Program-made: the position numbers and the translations under genes
Notes under the pieces: model-generated
Databases searched by the model: none
What the model was told of the DNA's origin: nothing
The model's input: the letters and a program-made list of their open reading frames with translations, nothing else
Origin: a phage
Sequence record: PZ295659.1
DNA length: 64,000 nucleotides
Strand: one strand, 5' to 3'
Shown here: positions 2,877-23,034 of the stretch, piece after piece
How the letters are laid out: each line of letters starts with the position of its first letter
Position numbering within the stretch: position 1 is the stretch's first letter

Positions 2877-3871
2877 CATTCCTTAAGAAGTTTTACTACT
2901 TGAATAAGATTAGCTCGTTCTGTTTTATTTTTACCATTTAAGCCTGCTAATCGTGAGATTTCATCGTCAGTTTGTTGAATAGTTACATTAAGTTCGTTAA
3001 TCAAAGCTTCAAAGTATTTGATTTGCTCAGCATGTTTTGATTCAAATTTCTGAACCGGAATAACGTCTTGGTTTAGTTCATCAATAAGGTCTTTAAGAGC
3101 ATCTTCTTGGTTGATGTCATATTCAACTTCTTTTATTTCTTCAACGAGCTCGTCTTTATATCTAACGTCTTTTAGTCCTGGTGCTGGTCCTGAAATCTCT
3201 TCTTTAAGAGTACAAACATATCCAATACGATATCCAATGCCGTCTCGCTTGATAACAACTTCGTCAATAAATCCACAATGTTTAAGACCAGAGCCGATTA
3301 AGTCAAAATATCCTTGACGTCGTCCTTCAAACGTTACACGAACTACTAAGACAGTTTTACCTGCAACCTTTTGAAGCTCACATTTATAAAAGTCTGTTGA
3401 ACCTGAATAACGTGGATGAGTTTTAAAGTTCATCTGACGATCTAGGCCCATTTGTAAGCGTGCTGATACGGCCATAAAACGTGTTTGGTTCTCGTTAAGA
3501 TGAGCAACAATCCATTTCAAAGGCATTTTACCTTGTTCACGACCGAACAAATCAGTATATCCTAGATTACGCAGGATGTTGTTAGAGTTAATCATCGACA
3601 GAACGTTAAGTTTATTCAGCGCGCTGAAGATTCCATCAGCCATTGATTTTCCGTAACCTTTACACGCTTTAATAAGCGCTCGCGGTAGATTAGTATAGAT
3701 TTCAGACGGCATATGAAAATCAAATTTACTAGTCAGTAATTGATGGACTTGGATAGCAATTTGCTCATAATTAAGTGCTCTGCGATCATTATGGTCTTTA
3801 AACCACACTTTAATCTGTGAAGCACATAAACCGTTAATTTCATGTTTTACCGCATCAGATGTAATGCTCAT
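2876..3871 (-). CDS. hypothetical protein, C-terminal coiled coil
   Basis: 331-aa ORF, ATG start. Confidence 0.55.
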   Translation of the reverse strand: MSITSDAVKHEINGLCASQIKVWFKDHNDRRALNYEQIAIQVHQLLTSKFDFHMPSEIYTNLPRALIKACKGYGKSMADGIFSALNKLNVLSMINSNNILRNLGYTDLFGREQGKMPLKWIVAHLNENQTRFMAVSARLQMGLDRQMNFKTHPRYSGSTDFYKCELQKVAGKTVLVVRVTFEGRRQGYFDLIGSGLKHCGFIDEVVIKRDGIGYRIGYVCTLKEEISGPAPGLKDVRYKDELVEEIKEVEYDINQEDALKDLIDELNQDVIPVQKFESKHAEQIKYFEALINELNVTIQQTDDEISRLAGLNGKNKTERANLIQVVKLLKE

Positions 3872-9978: not shown

Positions 9979-10560
9979 TTATAACAACCCTGTCAAATCA
10001 TTCCAATGCTTCCGGCATAATGACACATATCTATCGGTGTCACCAATTTCAATTTGACTGCCATCTGTAATTGGAAGTCCGTCTTCCGTGACTCTAGCTA
10101 CCATTGTGGCCTTTTTACCACAATGACAGACACCTTTAAGTTCAACAAGCTTATCGGCAATAGCCATTAATGCTTGAGAACCTTCAAATAGATTACCTTT
10201 AAAATCTGTTCGTAGTCCATATGCCATTACCGGCACATTGTATACGTCAACAATACGACTAAGTTGATACACCTTTTCAGTAGTTAAGAATTGAGCTTCA
10301 TCAACAAATACACAATGAATATCCTTTTGTGCTGCAGCCCATTTATAGAATTCAAAGATATCCATGTCTTTTGTAATTATATTGGCGTCCTGACGAATAC
10401 CAATACGAGAGACTATTTCACCTTTTGAATCGCGAGTATCAATAGCCGGTTTAAGAACTAATACACTCATGCCACGTTCTTTATAGTTATGAGCGGCAGT
10501 AAGTAATGAAGCAGACTTACCAGCGTTCATAGCGGCATATGTAAAAATTAAACTAGCCAT
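9979..10560 (-). CDS. tk: thymidine kinase
   Basis: P-loop AMNAGKS near N-terminus, C-terminal CHCGKKA...C zinc motif; typical TK1-family architecture and T4 position. Confidence 0.9.
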   Translation of the reverse strand: MASLIFTYAAMNAGKSASLLTAAHNYKERGMSVLVLKPAIDTRDSKGEIVSRIGIRQDANIITKDMDIFEFYKWAAAQKDIHCVFVDEAQFLTTEKVYQLSRIVDVYNVPVMAYGLRTDFKGNLFEGSQALMAIADKLVELKGVCHCGKKATMVARVTEDGLPITDGSQIEIGDTDRYVSLCRKHWNDLTGLL

Positions 10561-10750
10561 AAGAGTCCTTAGTTAAATTTTCTAAATATGTTTCTAAATC
10601 ATTTTCAGCTTTATCGATAGATTTTACTAATTCGTAGTATGTTTCAGCATCTCCATAATCCGAAGCCAATTCAAAAGATAAATCTCGTTCTAAACTAATA
10701 ATTTCGCTGATTAAAAATCGTATTTCATTCTTTTGTTCGCGAGTAATCAT
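10553..10750 (-). CDS. hypothetical small acidic protein (tk.1 position)
   Basis: 65-aa ORF; paralogous to next ORF. Confidence 0.45.
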   Translation of the reverse strand: MITREQKNEIRFLISEIISLERDLSFELASDYGDAETYYELVKSIDKAENDLETYLENLTKDSYG

Positions 10751-19280: not shown

Positions 19281-19586
19281 TTATTTTCCTCGACATTCTT
19301 TAATGAAATTTTCTAGATTGGTAGATTCAATAGCTTTTTTACGAGCTTCTGCGTGTTCTTCTTCAGACAATTTACATTTATAATTGACCCAGACATTATG
19401 GTCGAAACTAGTCGTGGCATATAATAACAATGCTCCGACGAATAATAAAAACGGTGATAAGAATACAAAACCGGGAACACCATCCATATCGTAAGCCTTT
19501 TGTAATACTGCAACAGAAAGGGCTGCGTAAAAAGGTGATGCAAATATTGTTAAAAGACCAATTCGGTTGGTTTCGCCTAATTTCAT
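19281..19586 (-). CDS. hypothetical membrane protein (two hydrophobic helices)
   Basis: 101-aa ORF, SD GAGGAG upstream. Confidence 0.45.
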   Translation of the reverse strand: MKLGETNRIGLLTIFASPFYAALSVAVLQKAYDMDGVPGFVFLSPFLLFVGALLLYATTSFDHNVWVNYKCKLSEEEHAEARKKAIESTNLENFIKECRGK

Positions 19587-19656: not shown

Positions 19657-20613
19657 TTATTTGAAAGGTTTCACCATATGAAAATTTTCTTTAAACCGTT
19701 TGATGTAATCATCATGTCCTAAGCTTTGGTACATACTTACTACTTTGCTGTAGTTTTCCCAGGCGTATTCACGGAACCAACCGGAGGTGATGCTTGTACA
19801 GACTTTTTCCAATGCCATCATGAAACTGGCTTCAGGATTAATTTTAAAGTCATTAGGAATCTGAGAACGTTCTAATGCTAGTACACATGATTCTTCATAT
19901 ACACCGGCCAATTTGACCATTTCTGGTAAAGATTCGAACTTCTCGCGTGAGGTCATGACTTCAGAACCGTCTTTCATATAAAATGTATATGCTGGACGGT
20001 CTGTTAGTGCAATGGCTTCATGAATAGTATCATGGTCATATGTATAGATGTCATCTTTAAAGAACGCACTTTTAGAAGTGTCAAGAACTGGGTGAGCATA
20101 GTTCAAGGTTTCTTTCTGGCGTTTCAGCATAATTTCAGTAAGTTCATCGTTCAGTGTAACACCTTTACCACGAAGATACTGAATATGGTTCATAGTCTTT
20201 AAAAAGAATGGATTATTTTTCTTGAAACGATGAGACATCTTAATTGCAAGACATATCTCAGGAGTTGCCCAGTAAAACCCGTTCAAACGGTCTTTAGTCA
20301 AATTTTTCTTGGCGTATTTTAAAAGGTCATAAGAAGACGTGAAATCTTCAGGAGTGAGTTCACCGACTAATTCACGGACATTAGTGATTGCCGGAACAAT
20401 ATATGCTTCAAAATGAGTTTCGCGTCCATTATGGAAGCATTTGAAAACTTGGACATCAGGGTTATCTTGATGAACATATACACCCATCATTTGATTTTTG
20501 AACACATTCCAAGAACATTGGTCCGCAATAAAGTCCCAATCACTATTTTTGATAGCACTAGAATCAATAAGACCGTGATAGTGAAGTGCACGAGAACCAA
20601 TAACTAACATCAT
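19657..20613 (-). CDS. hypothetical protein
   Basis: 318-aa ORF, ATG start. Confidence 0.5.
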   Translation of the reverse strand: MMLVIGSRALHYHGLIDSSAIKNSDWDFIADQCSWNVFKNQMMGVYVHQDNPDVQVFKCFHNGRETHFEAYIVPAITNVRELVGELTPEDFTSSYDLLKYAKKNLTKDRLNGFYWATPEICLAIKMSHRFKKNNPFFLKTMNHIQYLRGKGVTLNDELTEIMLKRQKETLNYAHPVLDTSKSAFFKDDIYTYDHDTIHEAIALTDRPAYTFYMKDGSEVMTSREKFESLPEMVKLAGVYEESCVLALERSQIPNDFKINPEASFMMALEKVCTSITSGWFREYAWENYSKVVSMYQSLGHDDYIKRFKENFHMVKPFK

Positions 20614-20641: not shown

Positions 20642-20893
20642 TTAAATTTCACGACATGCGGTATCATATTCATCCCAGAGGTCATCGTGTGAAGCCTCTA
20701 CCAATGGAACGATTGTACCATTTATATCTTCATTATAAGGACAAATTGTACAATGTGCATCTTCGAATCGGATGCCTTTGTGTTCAGATTTTTTATAACG
20801 CATATCGAATATCTTTGCAAACTTTTCACGAGTAATGGTTTTAGCAACCACTTCGGTTCTAATACTTTCGTAATAAATCATTGTGGGCTCCAT
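20642..20893 (-). CDS. hypothetical small protein
   Basis: 83-aa ORF. Confidence 0.45.
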   Translation of the reverse strand: MEPTMIYYESIRTEVVAKTITREKFAKIFDMRYKKSEHKGIRFEDAHCTICPYNEDINGTIVPLVEASHDDLWDEYDTACREI

Positions 20894-20900
20894 TTAATTT

Positions 20901-20940
20901 GATAGGACTACTATAACATAGCCCTATCTTGTTGTAAACT
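20901..20940 (-). promoter_or_regulatory. early-promoter-like element with palindrome GATAGGACTA...TAGCCCTATC around the -10
   Basis: gtaaac at 20934-20939. Confidence 0.45.
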
Positions 20941-20944
20941 GTTT

Positions 20945-21142
20945 TTAGCAAGAATAACTAGATGATACCCAGCCTTGAACAGTAATACTATTATTTGATA
21001 CCGAGATTGCGTTCTGGAGATTCAGACCTGCGTTATCTTCAATCCATAATGTAACTTCTTCGCGTTCTTCTGTTGCAATTTGGAACAGGTTTTCCAGGGC
21101 AGCTACTGCCGTACGTACAGCACAATCTAATTCACGAGACAT
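20945..21142 (-). CDS. hypothetical small protein, member of a tandem paralog trio (C-terminal GWVSSSxxC)
   Basis: Ends QGWVSSSYSC. Confidence 0.4.
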   Translation of the reverse strand: MSRELDCAVRTAVAALENLFQIATEEREEVTLWIEDNAGLNLQNAISVSNNSITVQGWVSSSYSC

Positions 21143-21151
21143 ATGATTTCC

Positions 21152-21424
21152 TTAACAAGTGTGAGAAGATGCAATCCAACCACCGGTTTCGAGGCTTAGG
21201 TTGTAGTCGTATTGGTAAACGTCAGCCCATTCAGCATAGCCGTTTTTTGTACAACGTTCAAGGTCGGCTTTAAGCTGTCCGGGTGAATGATAGGTTCCAC
21301 CCATACCATAAGCTGGATACAAGTCGAATGTTGTGTTTTGTTTATCAGCAATTTCTTTGGCGGCCTCAATAGCTGCATAGATTTTTGCTACAGCTTCAGC
21401 CAGTTCGGTTTGTTCTTTAGACAT
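21152..21424 (-). CDS. hypothetical small protein, tandem paralog (C-terminal GWIASSHTC)
   Basis: Shares YGxGxTYxxPG and the C-terminal motif with 21434-21739. Confidence 0.45.
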   Translation of the reverse strand: MSKEQTELAEAVAKIYAAIEAAKEIADKQNTTFDLYPAYGMGGTYHSPGQLKADLERCTKNGYAEWADVYQYDYNLSLETGGWIASSHTC

Positions 21425-21433
21425 AGTGATTCC

Positions 21434-21739
21434 TTAGCACAACGCAGAAGACGAAACCCAAGCACCTTCAGTAATAACGTAACCATTACCTTCACGCTTA
21501 ACATCGCCACCATTATTTTCAATTTCATTTTTCATCCACTGGGATACGATTTCACCCTTAGGATAATAAGTACGACCGCTACCATAATCACCTACAGAAA
21601 ATGATACGGCATATTGGTCTGCGATCTTTGTTGCTTCTTCTTCGATACGTTCAGCTTGATTCAGAAGTTTATAAATTGCATCTGAAGCGGATTTGGCATC
21701 ATTAAACTCTGGTACTTTAATTTCAATAATCTTACTCAT
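21434..21739 (-). CDS. hypothetical small protein, tandem paralog (C-terminal AWVSSSALC)
   Basis: 101 aa, see neighbours. Confidence 0.45.
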   Translation of the reverse strand: MSKIIEIKVPEFNDAKSASDAIYKLLNQAERIEEEATKIADQYAVSFSVGDYGSGRTYYPKGEIVSQWMKNEIENNGGDVKREGNGYVITEGAWVSSSALC

Positions 21740-22095
21740 TTTCTACATTCCTTAATAAAGTTTTTGATTGTTTCATTTTCACGTCTAGATAAGAGTTCAT
21801 TATAACTAATCATTTGAGAAGCGTAAACCTTTTTATTTTTCTTGTTATGGTTTATAAAATCGTAGTAAAAATAGACTACAGTACAAAATGATGCGATGGA
21901 TGCAAAGGCTTGGGTATACCGTAAGTCCTGCCATTGGTCTGTGAATCCACCAGTGTTCCCTATAAATCCTAACACAACGCCGTCAATAAGAAATCCAACT
22001 AATCCAAAGGCAAATCCCATGCCAATACTCATAATAAAAATTAGAATGTTCTCACCAAGAGAAGGCCATACGGTTAAGAGTTCAGGCTTTTGCAT
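21736..22095 (-). CDS. hypothetical membrane protein
   Basis: 119 aa, multiple hydrophobic helices. Confidence 0.45.
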   Translation of the reverse strand: MQKPELLTVWPSLGENILIFIMSIGMGFAFGLVGFLIDGVVLGFIGNTGGFTDQWQDLRYTQAFASIASFCTVVYFYYDFINHNKKNKKVYASQMISYNELLSRRENETIKNFIKECRK

Positions 22096-22469: not shown

Positions 22470-23034
22470 ATTCTCTACATTCCATAATAAATTGCTCAAG
22501 GATTAAATTGTTAGTGAAATTAGGACTAACAACCATGGTTTCATAAAGCGCATCAATAGCACTTAAAGCATCAACTCTTTTAAGCAAAGGCTTGCCTTCA
22601 TACATAGTTTCAGAATCGACGATTAACGTAAAGTAATATTTTTTATTATTGACCAGAACTTCTGTATCAATATAAAACATGTTAGATCTTAAAAGCTTGT
22701 CTCTAAAACCATAATAATCTTCAGAGCGTTCGCTGATATATTCCCATTCAGTGTTTAAACAACAAACAGACCACGTAGGAGCAACGAAATCAGTGAATCT
22801 AATATCATGGTCTGCAACTAGTTTAGCAATAGCTCCGATATCATGAATCATAATACCTGGGGCTAATAAAGATTTTCGGTTATTTGCATATTCAGTTGTC
22901 TCATAAGAAGACGACCAGTACCATTTACGTCCAGTTGCAACATATCGTAATGAATCAACTAAAGACGTAGGTGGATTTACCTTATTTCGGAACTCTTCGA
23001 ACATTGAGTCAATATCATTATTTTGGTTTCGCAT
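22438..23034 (-). CDS. hypothetical protein
   Basis: Track start is TTG inside the upstream terminator; ATG at 23034 preferred. Confidence 0.45.
   Translation of the reverse strand: MRNQNNDIDSMFEEFRNKVNPPTSLVDSLRYVATGRKWYWSSSYETTEYANNRKSLLAPGIMIHDIGAIAKLVADHDIRFTDFVAPTWSVCCLNTEWEYISERSEDYYGFRDKLLRSNMFYIDTEVLVNNKKYYFTLIVDSETMYEGKPLLKRVDALSAIDALYETMVVSPNFTNNLILEQFIMECREYVKANPIHAN

Follow-up and report, generated by a model that had tools for sequence, protein, structure and literature searches.

Three small phage proteins with a common cysteine-ending tail belong to a conserved accessory module that includes an enzyme-like protein

RESULTS

Three consecutive genes share a C-terminal tail

We analyzed a stretch of 64,000 nucleotides of phage DNA (sequence record PZ295659.1; hereafter the window), focusing on three consecutive minus-strand open reading frames (ORFs) of 101, 90, and 65 amino acids (aa), which we call ORF3, ORF2, and ORF1. 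An earlier sequence-only reading had described them as tandem genes ending in similar Cys-containing tails, and the ORF listing confirmed all three. We found that this trio belongs to an accessory module that is conserved in large lytic phages and composed of one to five small acidic proteins and an enzyme-like protein of about 300 aa. The region between 20600 and 22200 is 97 to 98% identical to that of Escherichia phage HX01 and of about 130 further genomes of the genus Mosigvirus (RB69-like, Tevenvirinae). In RB69, ORF3 corresponds to RB69ORF139c and 138c fused, ORF2 to RB69ORF137c, and ORF1 to RB69ORF136c. The genes and their principal features, including the partner gene, are as follows.

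21434-21739, minus strand: ORF3 (101 aa), ending in ...EGAWVSSSALC; matches phrog_899 (E 1.8e-22) and the hidden Markov model (HMM) of the family (E 4.1e-26)
21437-21460, minus strand: ORF3 tail motif, W94 to C101 (W-V-S-S-S-A-L-C), read from the sequence
21560-21586, minus strand: ORF3 core loop, Y-G-S-G-R-T-Y-Y-P (conservation in the family: Y 96%, G 99%, G 96%, Y 96%)
21152-21424, minus strand: ORF2 (90 aa), ending in ...TGGWIASSHTC; matches phrog_899 (E 1.9e-18) and the family HMM (E 2.5e-24)
21155-21178, minus strand: ORF2 tail motif, W83 to C90 (W-I-A-S-S-H-T-C), read from the sequence
21281-21310, minus strand: ORF2 core loop, Y-G-M-G-G-T-Y-H-S-P, from the family alignment
20945-21142, minus strand: ORF1 (65 aa), ending in ...VQGWVSSSYSC; matches phrog_4882 (E 1.6e-36)
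20948-20971, minus strand: ORF1 tail motif, W58 to C65 (W-V-S-S-S-Y-S-C), from sequence reading and HHalign
19657-20613, minus strand: partner gene (318 aa; RB69ORF134c; phrog_2141), matching Pfam DUF7277 (E 4e-27) and DUF7275 (E 5e-79)

The three proteins had been proposed to be paralogs, which holds along the length of ORF2 and ORF3, while ORF1 shares the tail alone. In a BLASTP comparison, ORF2 and ORF3 matched with an E value of 4e-6 and 29% identity across 73 aa, and both aligned to the C-terminal part of the phrog_899 profile; the similarity is thus significant and not due to chance. Both are also matched by the family HMM, which was built from metagenomic members. They have the N-terminal helix ending in ...A-[DE]-x, the F-x-F strand, and the Y-G-x-G-x-T-Y-Y-P core that characterize the family. 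The core previously given as YGxG(G/R)TY(H/Y)(S/P)PG is real in these two proteins, but the pattern was slightly off: the sequences are YGMGGTYHSPG in ORF2 and YGSGRTYYPKG in ORF3, and their common part is Y-G-x-G-x-T-Y-[HY]. ORF1 lacks the core and is not matched by the phrog_899 profile. Its BLASTP similarity to the other two (E 4e-4 and 0.012) was restricted to the tail, and its HHalign match to the family (86.5% probability, E 4.6e-6) covered the last 13 columns only.

Of the 260 window ORFs of at least 45 aa, 3 matched a regular expression of the tail, and these were exactly the trio; of 518 T4 ORFs, none did. The codons used for the tail differ among the genes (Ser TCA/TCT/AGT in one, TCG/TCT/TCT in another, and Ala GCA followed by TCT/TCT in the third), indicating that the conservation is at the protein level and that there was no recent gene conversion.

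The AlphaFold2 (AF2) model of ORF3 (predicted local distance difference test score [pLDDT], 91.5) is compact, with a helix at residues 15 to 43 and a beta-sheet. It had no fold match in the PDB, and its matches in BFVD were uncharacterized members of the family only. The model of ORF1 (pLDDT 80) has a helix at residues 3 to 26, a hairpin at residues 46 to 55, and a tail scoring below 50; a BFVD fold search with it returned no match and hence no family member.

The tail defines a wider family of small acidic proteins

Using the family profile, we conducted an exhaustive search of 1.8 billion representative sequences (50% identity clusters) with a cutoff of E <= 1e-3 and obtained 248 cluster representatives. 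Nearly all were 70 to 120 aa long, and nearly all had their own last residue aligned to the last position of the profile. The proposal of a family with a conserved Cys-containing C-terminal tail, made in the earlier reading, is supported. None of the 248 carried an annotation. Among 150 small matches, 136 ended in Cys and 141 fitted W-x-[SPTA]-S-x3-C; hardly any member deviates at the Trp, the Ser-Ser, or the final Cys. All three window ORFs end exactly in W-x-[S/A/P]-S-S-x-x-C, our operational definition of the tail. The exhaustive search was required: a word-indexed protein search with ORF3 found six relatives only, and tblastn with the family consensus found no match, probably due to low-complexity masking.

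The family follows a common plan, in which an amphipathic helix ending in ...A-E-x-I-A-D-E is followed by F-x-F, by Y-G-M-G-G-T-Y-Y-P, by an acidic linker rich in Trp and Ser, and by the end G-x-W-[VI]-S-S-S-x-x-C. Its members are acidic, with a median isoelectric point (pI) of 4.5. Additional internal copies of W-x-S-S-x-C occur, often in the linker (12 observed versus 0.045 expected from shuffled sequences), and W-x-S-S is similarly repeated (34 observed versus 1.5 expected). The tail also occurs on unrelated protein bodies. Judged by this distribution, it behaves as a reusable short C-terminal motif.

Members are present in other Tevenvirinae, such as Dhakavirus IME08. A strict degenerate DNA pattern for Y-G-M-G-G-T-Y-Y-P matched 13 IMG/VR contigs, several of them from phages of 185 to 390 kb, and had zero matches in 185,579 bacterial and archaeal genomes. 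In T4, we found no convincing family member across 126 kb covering all early and middle regions. Two faint T4 matches to the family HMM were considered there: gp49.3 (E 0.5) was rejected, and Tk.1 (62 aa; 10447-10635 in locus L021, L numbers denoting the loci compared), which scored E 0.006 and 12.8 bits via ...SFEISSEYGDAETYY... and has no tail, was not accepted.

Scans of the three small proteins against Pfam, NCBIfam, and PADLOC gave nothing above threshold; the subthreshold profile matches to Peptidase_S78_2 (0.0036), E217_Gp32, and PDC-S49 were dismissed as noise. Searches of the literature for the gene names, the PHROG and DUF numbers, and the motif strings found nothing relevant. Catalogues list phrog_899, phrog_4882, and phrog_2141 as separate families of unknown function and note no common tail and no association with the enzyme gene. 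What appears to be new is that the tail is shared across families and that the pairing of its genes with the DUF7277/DUF7275 gene is conserved.

The tail genes accompany an enzyme-like gene

On the same strand as ORF1 and 332 bp downstream of it, the partner gene is beyond the coordinates covered by the sequence-only reading. Starting from the small proteins, neighbor clustering revealed a same-strand enzyme gene no more than 4 kb away, usually just downstream, in 16 of 20 loci, the other four being short or incomplete stretches. Phage Hallingskeid had first been scored negative; its enzyme gene is 3.7 kb away, and a second tail gene lies immediately upstream of it. Starting from the enzyme, we found one to five adjacent same-strand tail ORFs, some with quite different bodies, in Otagovirus phiPsa347, Phapecoctavirus ESCO13, Lazarusvirus KARL-1, Shewanella phage Thanatos-1, Menderavirus BUCT608, Variovorax phage V45v66, and, among four metagenomic contigs, in three. 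In the remaining one (L034), the sole exception, the adjacent family-like ORF is without the tail. Overall, all of the approximately 26 long-form loci examined, from about 18 phage lineages, carry one to five small genes, with this one tail-less relative only. Since the small genes nearly always adjoin the enzyme-like gene, they probably work together with it.

On the other hand, tail genes were absent from all six loci in which the enzyme has a short form (250 to 262 aa), namely, those of Streptomyces, Gordonia, Arthrobacter, and three Vibrio phages. These short forms (L028, L029, L030, L036, L037, and L038) retain the G-S...D-x-D and D-H-D-x-x-H motifs, but K-x-T-I-T-S-L-T-K-G-W replaces K-V-C-T-S-I-T-S-G-W, so they have no Cys at this site. 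The corresponding residue, C272, was kept in 118 of 120 close long-form homologs; the conserved Cys of the enzyme thus co-occurs with the presence of tail proteins. The early and middle regions of T4 (126 kb) contain neither tail genes nor the enzyme gene.

Public data contain about 2,500 clusters (90% identity) of enzyme homologs; none is named, and the contigs that carry them fit large phages. In its N-terminal domain, G6, S7, D25, and D27 are invariant and E69 is conserved in at least 90% (10 to 18 divergent homologs). A G-S followed 15 to 20 residues on by D-x-D, and then by a Glu on a later strand, is the minimal signature of a Pol-beta-type nucleotidyltransferase, and this motif was present in 120 of 120 database homologs. 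Two Acinetobacter phage records label the homolog "putative nucleotidyltransferase." From these motifs, we infer that the N-terminal domain may be a nucleotidyltransferase. The assignment was not confirmed by Pfam scans of ten homologs at E <= 10 or by PDB searches with the full-length and N-terminal profiles, and scans of the partner gene against Pfam, NCBIfam, and PADLOC returned DUF7277 and DUF7275 only.

The C-terminal domain has the invariant stretches K-M-S-H-R, Y-D-H-D-x-I-H-E, E-E..L-A-L-E-R, and K-V-C-T-S-I-T-S-G-W-F-R-E. The invariant H128, H194-D195, H198, and E240/E241/E248 of DUF7275 could fit an HD motif, although no HD profile matched at E <= 10. No HEPN motif (R-x4-6-H), which would bear on a comparison with MNT-HEPN pairs, was evident on reading the enzyme alignment, and no ThiF/E1 profile matched the enzyme.

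Two short-form genes lie within or beside tRNA clusters (Gordonia phage Toniann and Arthrobacter phage Atuin), and the long-form gene of Thanatos-1 is followed by two tRNA genes. In the jumbo-phage loci L006/L035, L007, L009, L017, L018, and L031, the module is 1 to 4 kb from polynucleotide kinase and/or RNA ligase genes. This proximity could hint at a role of the enzyme related to RNA repair, or it could merely reflect the usual clustering of early accessory genes.

The trio is old and under purifying selection

Dhakavirus IME08 has three counterparts of the trio in the same order. Their identities to the window proteins are 66, 51, and 60%, versus 32 to 38% among neighboring paralogs, indicating that the triplication predates the split between Mosigvirus and Dhakavirus. 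A local gene duplication, if a recent one is meant, is therefore not what these genes record; on these comparisons, ORF2 and ORF3 are ancient paralogs. Likewise, the proposal of a diversifying family did not hold on a short scale. Among Mosigvirus genomes, the ratio of nonsynonymous to synonymous polymorphism (pN/pS) was 0.05 to 0.30 for ORF1 and 0.07 to 0.12 for ORF2, and ORF3 was at least 99% identical in 116 records. Selection in this genus is purifying, and pN/pS was 0.04 to 0.10 for the partner gene.

IME08 also contains an unannotated fourth member of 69 aa (3290-3499 in locus L003), which ends in ...GFWFSSSMSC, is matched by the HMM with an E value of 3e-10, and overlaps orf120. The orf120 product itself ends in ...KIWYPSSC, representing a second class of tail, W-[HY]-x-S-S-C, that was also seen in Karamvirus, CC2, ESCO13, and Thanatos-1.

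In the RB69 reference genome (NC_004928; 2501-2807 in locus L002), a frameshift splits ORF3 into ORF139c and ORF138c. This gene is intact in nearly all other Mosigvirus genomes, and ORF2 is in two pieces in phages ST0 and mar005P1. The broken RB69 gene represents either the laboratory decay of a dispensable gene or a sequencing error.

Genes and sites around the trio

The features flanking the trio are as follows.

21736-22095, minus strand: e.3 homolog, directly upstream of ORF3, from the ORF listing and comparison with RB69
21799-21827, minus strand: promoter-like site TTTACG-17-TATAAT inside e.3, upstream of the trio (weak evidence)
20910-20938, minus strand: early-promoter-like site TTTACA-17-TG-TATAGT, between ORF1 and ORF135c
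20642-20893, minus strand: intervening gene of 83 aa (RB69ORF135c; phrog_3723), from the ORF listing and a profile match

The three ORFs are separated by spacers of 9 nucleotides each, TAA-GGAATCACT-ATG and TAA-GGAAATCAT-ATG, with a GGA ribosome-binding site. The TGA stop codon of e.3 overlaps the ATG of ORF3 as ATGA, implying cotranscription and coupled translation. The annotation of phage SA79RD has a T4-type middle promoter at the position matching 21799-21827 and a terminator at the position matching 20910-20938. Promoter-like sites in the window were not enriched over shuffled sequence.

In RB69, the trio lies between e.3 and an RB69-specific block (135c, 134c, 133c...) that precedes e.2, nudE, and e. 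In T4, e.2 directly abuts e.3 with no gene between them. The trio thus occupies a plastic, nonessential early/middle region.

The ORF135c protein ends in ...L-W-D-E-Y-D-T-A-C-R-E-I, with a seven-residue spacing from Trp to Cys like that of the tail and without Ser-Ser; a C-x-x-C is present too. The protein could be a degenerate relative or could be unrelated. Neighbor clustering of the loci showed ORF135c to be conserved only in Mosigvirus and Dhakavirus, and its membership in the module is uncertain.

A 17-nucleotide motif, TTYATHAARGARTGYMG, occurs on the minus strand at 19291-19307, 21743-21759, and 22475-22491 (three copies versus 0.08 expected). In the RB69ORF133c-like gene, e.3, and e.5, which are neighboring small membrane-protein genes, it lies close to the 3' end and encodes F-I-K/M-E-C-R; the end of e.4, ...EFVKEIRCKSLNS, resembles it. 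The AAGGAA within the e.3 copy is also the ribosome-binding site of ORF3; the remaining copies have no such explanation.

DISCUSSION

A possible partnership between the tail proteins and the enzyme

The earlier reading had held that the function of the trio cannot be read from its sequence. This remains true in that no activity can be assigned, but the conserved gene order ties the tail genes to a nucleotidyltransferase-like gene. We put the chances that the small proteins and the enzyme are in a direct functional partnership at about even. In such a partnership, the small proteins would all dock to the enzyme via the tail as their handle, and they would most likely serve as substrates or carrier subunits of this enzyme. 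Its nucleotidyltransferase-like N-terminal domain would then place a nucleotide-derived modification on the Ser hydroxyls or on the terminal Cys, and the His/Asp-rich C-terminal domain could possibly reverse or process this modification. A less specific alternative is that the small proteins act as regulatory or adaptor subunits. The different bodies carried on one handle would then allow a single enzyme to have several outputs. For the covalent modification of the tail specifically, our expectation is low. The module probably serves to take over the host or to counter a response of the host, although no specific target can be named, and this is a guess prompted by the early/middle location, the dispensability, and the acidity of the small proteins.

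Several observations weigh against this partnership or against parts of it. Gene order is the only tie between the small proteins and the enzyme. In the window, the two are separated by the 83-aa gene and by a promoter-/terminator-like site, so they need not share a transcript. The contrast between long and short forms is confounded by phylogeny, every short form belonging to an actinophage or a Vibrio phage. What supports the nucleotidyltransferase assignment is a short motif, with no significant match to a curated profile or a solved structure. As for the tail, a minority of family members have one further residue behind the Cys, which speaks against a free Cys carboxylate being strictly required, and the W-V-S-S of ORF3 is in a beta-strand of the compact, confidently predicted fold, so that part of its "tail" would be structural and not a free peptide.

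Alternative explanations

The alternative that survives best, which we still regard as somewhat unlikely, is that the small proteins are stand-alone effectors directed at the host, such as acidic decoys or inhibitors that act on a host enzyme or defense protein, with a tail that binds a host target and an enzyme gene that is merely a co-traveling neighbor. The proteins are indeed small and acidic (pI 4.1 to 4.7) and are encoded in an early/middle region, and arrays of divergent paralogs are typical of phage counter-defense loci. The frameshifted ORF3 of RB69 would be consistent with a gene that is dispensable in the laboratory, and the trio is set apart from the enzyme by another gene and a putative promoter and terminator. 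However, the linkage persists across lineages whose enzymes are 36 to 45% identical and whose surroundings are otherwise unrelated, where hitchhiking would be expected to decay, and the presence of tail genes tracks the sequence state of the enzyme, i.e., the Cys motif and the long form.

The co-occurrence of the enzyme Cys with the tail proteins would also suit a tail that is a metal-binding or redox element. The tail would then hold a metal or cluster, or form disulfides between subunits or with Cys272, and the small proteins would be cofactor-bearing or structural subunits instead of substrates. A single invariant terminal Cys, the extra Cys-containing motif copies in the linkers, and the seven-residue W-to-C spacing that recurs, reversed, in the C-T-S-I-T-S-G-W of the enzyme (possibly by coincidence) are in line with this idea. 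We nonetheless consider it improbable, and clearly more so than host-directed effectors, because one Cys per chain makes a poor ligand set unless the proteins are oligomeric, neither His/Cys clusters nor known metal-site motifs occur, and disulfides are unlikely in the cytoplasm.

The position of a conserved core at the extreme C terminus, behind a helical "leader-like" region, and its content of Trp, Ser, and Cys, which are typical cross-link residues, bring to mind precursors of ribosomally made modified peptides, from which the W...S-S...C core would be excised and cross-linked. Such precursors are very improbable here, since ORF3 is predicted to be folded (pLDDT 91.5), the W-V-S-S strand included, and none of the maturase-type genes (radical SAM, YcaO, lanthionine synthetase, protease, or exporter) is conserved in the neighborhood; the "leader" part, Y-G-x-G-x-T-Y, is also conserved as strongly as the tail. 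Finally, that the shared motifs are chance matches or that the ORFs are not genes, for which only the small size of the ORFs speaks, has a negligible likelihood and is already refuted by the HMM matches (E 1e-24 to 1e-26), the 248 representatives, the conservation across genera, pN/pS values well below 1, and the absence of the tail pattern from the 518 T4 ORFs.

Comparison with known systems

We found no sequence or fold similarity between the phage pair and the known systems considered here, which resemble it in logic. GlnD is a nucleotidyltransferase and HD enzyme that reversibly uridylylates the small signaling protein PII. The logic proposed for the phage pair is alike: an N-terminal Pol-beta-type motif is joined to a His/Asp-rich domain, and the partners are proteins of about 100 aa with a hydroxyl-bearing loop or tail.

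The holo-acyl carrier protein synthases CitX and MdcG have a nucleotidyltransferase fold and load a prosthetic group derived from a nucleotide onto a Ser in their small acidic carrier protein. The phage module similarly encodes small acidic partners of about 100 aa with a conserved Ser site beside a nucleotidyltransferase-like enzyme. However, homology is not detectable, the phage site is at the extreme C terminus and includes Trp and Cys, and genes for citrate lyase or malonate decarboxylase are absent.

In the E1-ubiquitin-like and MccB-MccA systems, the strictly C-terminal residue is adenylated, and the enzyme has a catalytic Cys. The phage proteins also have their conserved residue at the very C terminus, and the enzyme has a nucleotide-transfer-like motif and an invariant Cys. 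Unlike those systems, the phage tail ends in Cys and not in Gly-Gly or Asn, and the fold predicted for ORF3 combines a long helix with a sheet and has no PDB match, in place of the beta-grasp fold of ubiquitin-like proteins. Moreover, the internal copies of the tail motif could not be adenylated at a carboxylate, and a few members carry a residue past the Cys.

The sorting tags of sortases and exosortases are comparable in that one short C-terminal tag on varied bodies co-occurs with one enzyme gene. The phage proteins differ in lacking signal peptides and membrane anchors, being cytoplasmic and phage encoded, and no profile makes the phage enzyme a protease or transpeptidase.

A bolder proposal, which we consider rather unlikely, is a new protein-tagging or carrier system of large lytic phages, in which a nucleotidyltransferase-like enzyme with a putative catalytic Cys would act on the W-x-S-S-x-x-C tails of interchangeable small proteins, either loading a nucleotide-derived group or using the terminal Cys as an acceptor. 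The small proteins would then go on to host targets in the course of takeover or counter-defense. If true, the enzyme-substrate family would be of a new kind, and its fold would be new as well.

Significance

The trio is more structured a finding than the sequence-only reading could see. If its link to the enzyme is only co-inheritance, the trio would be an unremarkable family of small accessory proteins. For most of the early genes in T4-like and jumbo phages, no function is known, and here several of them group into one module, in which varied small proteins have a C-terminal tag in common and are accompanied by a single conserved enzyme-like gene. If the tail is a docking or modification site, it would provide a handle for biochemistry and a rule for finding further members by their tails, and it may represent a new type of phage-encoded protein modification.

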